NCBI GenBank assembly: GCA_030614005.1
Contig: JAUWKS010000102.1
Span: forward strand, 1-7,677
From: Candidatus Heimdallarchaeota archaeon
GTDB lineage: Archaea > Asgardarchaeota > Heimdallarchaeia > JABLTI01
Direction: 5' to 3'
Length of the DNA: 7,677 nucleotides
Below the pieces are notes generated by a model, which ran no database searches, was not told the DNA's origin, and saw only the letters and a program-made list of their open reading frames with translations. Positions 7,178 to 7,654 of this stretch are shown one piece after another. The stretch's first letter is position 1, and every line of letters begins with the position of its first letter. Both the position numbers and the translations under genes were made by a program.

Positions 7178-7495
7178 TTATTTTTCTTCGTTTAGTTCCA
7201 AACCAAATTTTGTTGATTTTCTTTTTCCTAACCAAAAAACTCTTCTAAAATTGGCTTCTTTGACAATTTGAGCGCCAGTCTCTTGTACTTTTTCCTTCAT
7301 ATATTTGAGTGCTTTTCCACCTGAGAAACGTGCAGTAGTAAATATAATGGTCTTCTTTCCCGAAAGATTTGGTACTTTTCTAACAATTTCATTAAAAGCA
7401 TTTGCAGGTTTATCACCATAAGTTGGCATACCAATAATGACTAACTCGTAATCTTTTGCATCTAGAAGTTTCAATTCTTCTTCATGGAAGAAGAA
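7178..7495 (-). pseudogene. 5'-truncated flavodoxin-like (FMN-binding fold) gene
   Basis: DYELVIIGMPTYG...LSGKKTIIFTT..FSGGKALKYMKEKVQETGAQIV matches the flavodoxin beta3-beta5 region. The N-terminal S/T-x-T-G-N-T phosphate loop is absent, and the upstream part of ORF 7178..7639 is the antisense of trpS. Confidence 0.75.
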
Positions 7496-7654
7496 AAAGA
7501 CTTGATGAAGAGAACCACTGAATGTAAAAATGGTGAAATTCTTTGTGGTGCGTGTAAGCAAGATCTGTTTAAACGAGCGAATCATTTCATCTCCAAACAT
7601 CAAGAGAAAAAGGAACAAAAACTCGAACACGCTAAACAACTATTGGAAAAATAA
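7466..7654 (+). pseudogene. trpS: 3' fragment of archaeal-type tryptophanyl-tRNA synthetase (anticodon-binding domain)
   Basis: Hand translation: KFQFFFMEEEKDLMKRTTECKNGEILCGACKQDLFKRANHFISKHQEKKEQKLEHAKQLLEK*. This resembles the archaeal TrpRS C-terminus (FFEEDD..L......CKxGEL.CGECK..L......FL.EHQ.RR). In-frame stops at 7463 (TAG) and 7442 (TAA) lie upstream, so the catalytic domain (HIGH/KMSKS) is missing. Confidence 0.85.
7475..7495. repeat. Perfect 9-bp inverted repeat with 3-nt spacer at the flavodoxin/trpS junction
   Basis: TTCTTCTTC-ATG-GAAGAAGAA, read directly from the sequence. Confidence 0.9.

Follow-up and report, generated by a model that had tools for sequence, protein, structure and literature searches.

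A colinear deletion at a short repeat as the probable origin of back-to-back flavodoxin and tryptophanyl-tRNA synthetase remnants in a Heimdallarchaeota genome

The window studied here, that is, the whole analysed stretch of DNA, is a complete contig of 7677 bp (G000:C38:1-7677) from a Heimdallarchaeota genome, G000, assembled into 126 contigs with the total length of 3.6 Mb and estimated to be about 90% complete. Near the end of this contig two genes that have lost their 5'-parts stand back to back at a short palindrome. The minus strand carries one of them, which is flavodoxin-like, and the plus strand the other, which codes for tryptophanyl-tRNA synthetase (TrpRS). The question is whether this junction was made during library preparation or assembly, is a scar fixed in the genome, or works as a switch for both genes. 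Only 193 bp separate it from the end of the contig, and contig ends are where assembly errors tend to cluster.

The G+C content of the contig is 33.3%, vs 33.5% in the rest of G000, and its genes show 78–79% identity to genes of the related genome G010. Public metagenome runs containing the window sequence originate from marine sediment and cold seep. Other window ORFs encode a DUF3788 protein, an M20 peptidase (811-2151), a Zn-ribbon protein, a presumed sensor-kinase-like protein of 895 aa and a metallophosphoesterase. A tRNA-Leu(CAG) gene is located downstream of the M20 peptidase at 7083-7170 on the plus strand (ARAGORN; Rfam RF00005, 46.3 bits), and the Rfam scan of 6800-7677 yielded nothing besides it. 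This tRNA gene occupies the syntenic position in G005, G007, G009 and G010 and thus serves as a conserved landmark of the locus. Its end is 8 bp away from the flavodoxin stop codon and 314 bp away from the junction, close to the distance of about 300 bp given in the original prediction.

Identity of the two remnants

The 3'-remnant of the flavodoxin-like gene, recognized by homologues and profiles, occupies positions 7178-7484 of the minus strand and retains about 101 codons, with the stop codon at 7178-7180. The minus strand at 7181-7483 aligns to residues ~60–159 of flavodoxin-like proteins of 159–162 aa from same-genus relatives (G005, G006, G008, G003 and G009) with 53–68% identity and E-values from 6e-43 to 8e-34. 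The full-length proteins start with M-K-A-L-I-V-Y-Y-T-M-G-G-R-T-K-K-T-A, and this start has no counterpart in the window. Accordingly, the remnant covers only positions ~42–116 of 140 in TIGR01753 and 37–114 of 145 in PF12724. The N-terminal ~59 codons are missing, and with them strand beta1, the FMN phosphate-binding loop and helix alpha1. The reading of the minus strand as the C-terminal two-thirds of a flavodoxin without the phosphate loop was thus correct, the last ~100 of ~160 aa being present. The 153-aa ORF annotated here fails the flavodoxin test as a whole protein (21.7 bits on PF12724 with the cut-off of 27); the full-length homologue from G005 scores 37.9 bits, above the Pfam flavodoxin cut-off. 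Given the absent cofactor-binding part, the remnant is probably a non-functional pseudogene.

The plus strand carries, at 7470-7654, the last ~60 codons and the stop codon of a second TrpRS paralogue, hereafter trpS2; the corresponding plus-strand ORF (7484-7654) has the length of 56 aa. The sequence at 7469-7651 matches the last ~55–60 positions of TrpRS models. On NF008925 it aligns to positions 305–362 of 365 (E 6e-11, 41.9 bits, the cut-off being 451), and on TIGR00233 it scores 31.1 bits, below the cut-off of 176.75. PF00579 has no match in the remnant. Pfam searches with the 56- and 62-aa plus-strand ORFs gave chance matches only (Sina_RING, TseH), which were rejected, and the TrpRS identity comes from NCBIfam and the relatives. 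The closest of these is a TrpRS of 376–385 aa from G001, whose C-terminus is 80% identical to the remnant at the protein level (E 2.6e-25) and whose gene has 88% DNA identity to it at the 3'-end, from position 7470 onward. The full-length G001 protein scores 220.7 bits on TIGR00233, above the cut-off.

In-frame stop codons at 7442-7444 and 7463-7465 precede the remnant. The HIGH and KMSKS motifs and the entire catalytic Rossmann domain are missing; in the trpS2 proteins of relatives YHIG and KMSKS are invariant. The C-terminal helical region with the G-x-(I/L)-L-C-G-x-C-K motif is present and aligns without gaps to seven trpS2 proteins (54–80% identity). Both the models and the relatives thus bear out the prediction that the plus strand encodes the last ~60 aa of TrpRS with stops just upstream, and the homology search suggested as a check identifies the region 7466-7654 as TrpRS. 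The loss of the catalytic part suggests that this remnant, too, is a pseudogene devoid of function.

Searching G000 with PF00579 revealed two synthetase genes of the W/Y type, one in contig C81 (a 373-aa open frame with two matched stretches) and one in contig C72. The latter (G000:C72:6779-7948) encodes a complete housekeeping TrpRS scoring 521.8 bits on NF008927 (equivalog cut-off 478), and is about 30% identical to the window fragment. Both TrpRS types are present in 7 of 10 same-genus relatives, where trpS2 is an open frame of 362–393 aa that retains the HIGH-like and KMSKS motifs and passes TIGR00233. The window fragment derives from trpS2 and not from the housekeeping gene. trpS2 is dispensable, as it is gone in G000 and G010 while the other paralogue is kept. 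Since TrpRS activity is supplied by the intact C72 paralogue, the loss of trpS2 is harmless.

Homologues of trpS2 with about 50% identity were observed in Hodarchaeota and other MAGs. In the relatives (loci L036-L044) its neighbours are the flavodoxin gene and an EamA transporter, to which a TldD/PmbA pair is often added. A literature search for Heimdallarchaeota together with tryptophanyl-tRNA synthetase found no paper.

Gene order and the breakpoint

In the relatives the genes follow in the order M20 peptidase, tRNA-Leu(CAG), a variable stretch, flavodoxin gene, trpS2, a gene encoding 125–128 aa, an EamA-type transporter and a ~900-aa protein. The flavodoxin gene (minus strand) and trpS2 (plus strand) are full-length and divergently transcribed in same-genus relatives. 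They are divergent neighbours about 290 bp apart in G006 and G008, are separated by the TldD/PmbA pair in G001 and G010, and by other genes in G005, the orientation being kept in all these cases. The window remnants have the same order and orientation, with colinear flanks. Hence, a plain colinear deletion yields the picture of two back-to-back 5'-truncated genes, and no inversion is needed. The genes expected downstream are found at the end of another contig, C99; this end cuts the 128-aa gene and is turned towards the end of C38. The C38–C99 link is by synteny only, as C38 has no exact end overlaps with other G000 contigs at k from 21 to 127.

The 125–131-aa protein encoded downstream of trpS2 belongs to no Pfam or NCBIfam family. 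Together with its paralogues it makes up a small family, of which G000 contains five copies or more (C99:19067-19424, C11:11468-11830, C112:6641-6892, C82:2057-2293 and C71:139312-139554), and tandem or duplicate copies are seen in G001 and G005.

The two homologies, expected to run out within 7466-7495, meet at 7470-7484, where the sequence TTCAATTCTTCTTCA is a microhomology common to both genes. It was delimited by comparing the window with the intact flavodoxin allele from a metagenome run (X6, see below) and with trpS2 of G001. The breakpoint, 7484/7485, lies inside a direct repeat that is exact over 10 nt (TTCTTCTTCA) and extends to 15 nt with one mismatch. With a slash marking the breakpoint, the intact flavodoxin allele reads TTCAATTCTTCTTCA/ATTAGAG, the G001 trpS2 gene reads TTCAGTTCTTCTTCA/TGGACGAAG, and the window, in which a single repeat copy is left, reads TTCAATTCTTCTTCA/TGGAAGAAG. 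In coding terms, the repeat TTCA(A/G)TTCTTCTTCA is the antisense of I-E-E-E-L in flavodoxin and the sense of Q-F-F-F-M in trpS2. The flavodoxin-side copy is observed in the same species, as the alternative path in X6; the ancestral trpS2-side copy is deduced from relatives that are not the same species, G001 and the metagenome contig L073 (87–88% DNA identity).

The palindrome noted at the join is indeed there, as a perfect 9+3+9 inverted repeat TTCTTCTTC-ATG-GAAGAAGAA at 7475-7495, and its left arm is the microhomology itself. It consists of native trpS2 codons (F-F-F-M-E-E-E), the intact G001 gene having TTCTTCTTCATGGACGAAGAC at the same codons. In other relatives FFFM/T is followed in most cases by an acidic stretch (ED, DD), and in G005 and G004 by N-R/K-E-D.

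These observations bear on the proposal of an inversion, reversible or fixed, at the palindrome, toggling both genes. Such a repeat exactly at the join would speak for it, the more so as the design is rare: there are 48 perfect 9+3+9 repeats in the 3.6 Mb of G000, and this 21-mer is unique among its sequences. However, the gene order and orientation match those of the relatives, and the palindrome lies wholly within the trpS2 side and the shared repeat; being native coding sequence that is present in an intact gene as well, it does not qualify as a crossover site. The G000 assembly contains neither the 5'-part of either gene, nor the reciprocal junction in which these parts would be joined, nor another copy of the 21-mer. 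No strand-changing joints were seen over 6800-7677 in the contigs of four metagenome runs. As already stated in the original prediction, no recombinase is encoded in the window; this was confirmed by the ORF survey and by family searches over the ORFs other than the 895-aa one. With no reciprocal junction, second orientation or recombinase, the reversible switch is contradicted, and we regard inversion in either form as scarcely credible.

We therefore favour, with the probability of about 0.88, a genuine microhomology-flanked colinear deletion in a Heimdallarchaeota lineage from marine sediment that left two pseudogene remnants. The ancestral order would have been tRNA-Leu(CAG), the flavodoxin gene on the minus strand, the TldD/PmbA pair as in the closest relatives, and trpS2 on the plus strand. 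By slippage during replication or by microhomology-mediated end joining, the DNA between the direct-repeat copies would then have been lost: the flavodoxin gene would have been deprived of its 5'-terminal ~59 codons and trpS2 of its 5'-terminal ~316 codons, and the intergenic DNA with any genes in it would have gone too, one repeat copy being retained at 7470-7484. The choice of these two mechanisms is suggested by the repeat. The size of the deletion would be about 1.4 kb starting from a G006-like ancestor and about 4.4 kb from an ancestor similar to G001 or G010, which are closer kin. The earlier suggestion of a fixed scar near the tRNA gene, with TrpRS supplied by a paralogue, therefore holds in its deletion form, which agrees with the synteny and the intact C72 gene, and fails in its inversion form.

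The junction in separately built contigs

For an independent view of the junction we used Logan contigs, which are built separately for each public run, and placed them on 6800-7677; these are contigs rather than raw reads, with the depth of 3–8x. Run X1 (study P1, 2024) has a contig of 3289 nt that spans 7083-7677 with one mismatch and extends 2.5 kb past the window; upstream of the tRNA it departs from the window and hence represents another strain. In run X2 (study P2, 2015) a 381-nt contig covers 7295-7675 with zero mismatches, and run X6, from a different P1 sample, has one of 523 nt over 7455-7677. In X1 and X2 the bridging contigs reach 185 nt or more past the junction in both directions, and in X6 the two arms measure 30 and 193 nt. 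Two contigs of a further run, X4, end or begin at 7475 without bridging and were counted neither way. The genome itself may come from one of the bridging runs, in which case strictly independent support would come from one or two runs.

Run X6 also contains a second path, which shares 7455-7484 with the window and then diverges, its minus strand reading N-F-S-L-I-E-E-E-L-K-L-L-D. Judging by its fit to F-S-L-I-E-D-E-L-N-S-L-D of the relatives, this path is the undeleted flavodoxin allele. In X2, a second path of low depth (2.2x) follows the flavodoxin remnant over 7295-7324, and leaves it at 7324; the 137 nt that come next are unrelated and interrupt the flavodoxin frame with stops. This path may represent a rearrangement or insertion variant of a co-occurring strain, or a chimeric read.

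JGI metagenome contigs were scanned as well. The 31-mer from the flavodoxin side of the junction had no match among them, and a 23-mer from trpS2 retrieved a single contig (L073), which has 87% DNA identity to the remnant from 7468 onward and comes from a G001-like species with intact trpS2, not from the species of the window.

The explanation originally ranked first was an artefact, either a PCR/MDA template-switch chimera or a misjoin by the assembler at a short repeat, the real genome having both genes intact, on short unbinned pieces. The position of the junction near the contig tip would be in line with that, as would the microhomology, which marks in-vitro template switching too, and the intact flavodoxin path in X6; an alternative path of 1.4–4.4 kb might moreover be under the binning length, the smallest G000 contig having 2448 bp. 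On the other hand, the same junction occurs in separately built contigs from different studies and years, at least two of them nine years apart; a chimera that arose once, in a library or during assembly, would not be expected to recur like this. The join is local and does not break colinearity, and its far side is where synteny predicts, facing C99. A repeat of 10–15 nt is far below the k-mer sizes of assemblers (k127/k141 for the contigs of relatives), and in sister genomes these genes have suffered real deletions of independent origin, seen on long contigs. Colinearity and the independently built bridging contigs thus contradict the artefact, which we consider improbable.

A genuine deletion also accounts for the 153-aa ORF, which starts with TTG and runs on the minus strand at 7178-7639. 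As predicted, it is composite: the first 52 residues are the codon-aligned antisense of the trpS2 remnant, have no counterpart in full-length flavodoxin homologues, and continue in frame into the flavodoxin remnant. The antisense frame is open because the trpS2 remnant contains no TTA, CTA or TCA codon until 7640. Under the genome codon usage the chance of this is P about 0.03; the same antisense frame is open, for 97 aa, over the intact trpS2 of G001. Most likely the ORF is a gene-caller artefact, an accidental open frame spanning the scar.

It might instead be argued that the deletion is real and the scar made a new expressed gene, this ORF. The frame is open across the scar, and the genes further upstream of it on C99 (the string of the 128-aa gene and EamA) run in the same direction, so that read-through transcription is possible. 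Yet the encoded fold would lack beta1, the phosphate loop and alpha1, making FMN binding and proper folding unlikely; the start codon is TTG with no evident promoter; the sole homologue of the N-terminal part is antisense trpS2; and no RNA run among the public runs contains the stretch. We find a new gene very improbable. The coexistence of the deleted and intact alleles in X6 allows one to picture the chimeric ORF, with its antisense-derived hydrophobic F-rich N-terminus and partial flavodoxin fold, as a de novo ORF birth; this is equally doubtful, and if true it would be an ORF birth by deletion caught in the act in an Asgard archaeon. A related reading, to be taken with the same reserve, treats trpS2, the flavodoxin gene and TldD/PmbA as an accessory module by tRNA-Leu, with selection on its presence or absence varying.

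Decay of the locus in sister genomes and known parallels

The deletion that we favour for G000 has parallels in its sister genomes. In G001 trpS2 is kept, and the flavodoxin gene (L039) is reduced to 72 aa by an internal deletion that preserves the frame. In G010, a 90% complete genome with the locus on a 196-kb contig, the flavodoxin gene (L045:7948-8190) has a different in-frame internal deletion with about 81 aa left, and trpS2 has an internal deletion of ~940 nt, only the first ~48 and the last ~13 codons remaining; the housekeeping TrpRS is retained. The same two genes are thus damaged differently in each of three sister lineages, and the locus is eroding repeatedly. The recurrent lesions fit relaxed selection on an accessory module, so a genuine deletion in G000 is unsurprising. 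It was also observed that the flavodoxin deletion in G001 lies between two coding repeats for K-K-T-(A/I), that is, again at microhomology.

The surroundings of the tRNA gene vary as well. Between its M20 peptidase and tRNA genes the window contains two genes (2185-2520 and 5487-6932) that are absent from the syntenic region of G010. They encode a Zn-ribbon protein of 111 aa and a membrane-anchored metallophosphoesterase of 481 aa whose N-domain is purple-acid-phosphatase-like, and they add to the gene-content flux at the locus. The DNA right after the 3'-end of tRNA-Leu(CAG) differs among relatives and metagenome strains. Metagenome contigs have several different continuations past 7172/7173, and over 7167-7173 at least three are seen; in G005 three other genes directly follow the tRNA, and in G010 (L045:5661-7929) there is a 2.27-kb insert encoding a 612-aa Cys-rich membrane protein with CxxCxGxG repeats. 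Nine nucleotides of the tRNA 3'-end recur 2.27 kb downstream, at the far side of this insert. An integrated element between tRNA-Leu and the flavodoxin remnant of G010 was considered and dropped, as the insert carries no integrase; nor was an integrase seen elsewhere in the variable DNA after tRNA-Leu.

For annotation, the 153-aa "flavodoxin" call should be flagged as a pseudogene, and the small TrpRS-like ORF should be treated as a remnant. What looks like the loss of an essential synthetase does no harm, given that the genus has two TrpRS paralogues. Further, the case documents that erosion has struck the same accessory genes repeatedly, in three sister Heimdallarchaeota lineages.

An auxiliary second TrpRS is known in other organisms, examples being TrpRS II of Deinococcus radiodurans and the indolmycin-resistant TrpRS copies of Streptomyces. 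The Heimdallarchaeota genus is alike in having two TrpRS that are about 30% identical, one of them dispensable. In the relatives trpS2 is set beside the flavodoxin gene, TldD/PmbA and EamA, and a functional link of trpS2 to nitric oxide synthase or to antibiotic resistance would be conjecture.

With site-specific invertible switches, such as invertase phase variation, the locus shares only a short inverted repeat at the point where two genes change. Unlike them, the scar lacks a flanking pair of inverted repeats, and neither a recombinase nor a second orientation nor the reciprocal junction was found.

Deletion between short direct repeats is a classical prokaryotic route to gene loss and pseudogenes. 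The G000 scar resembles such deletions in the colinear loss, in the repeat at both ancestral sites with a single copy at the scar, in the absence of a reciprocal product, and in the neighbouring lineages with other deletions in the same dispensable genes. Nothing essential differs, and the event is ordinary gene decay of a known kind that involves no new mechanism. The curiosity is the location of the repeat inside the coding sequence of two divergent genes, due to which both were 5'-truncated at once and a fortuitous 153-aa ORF came to span the scar.
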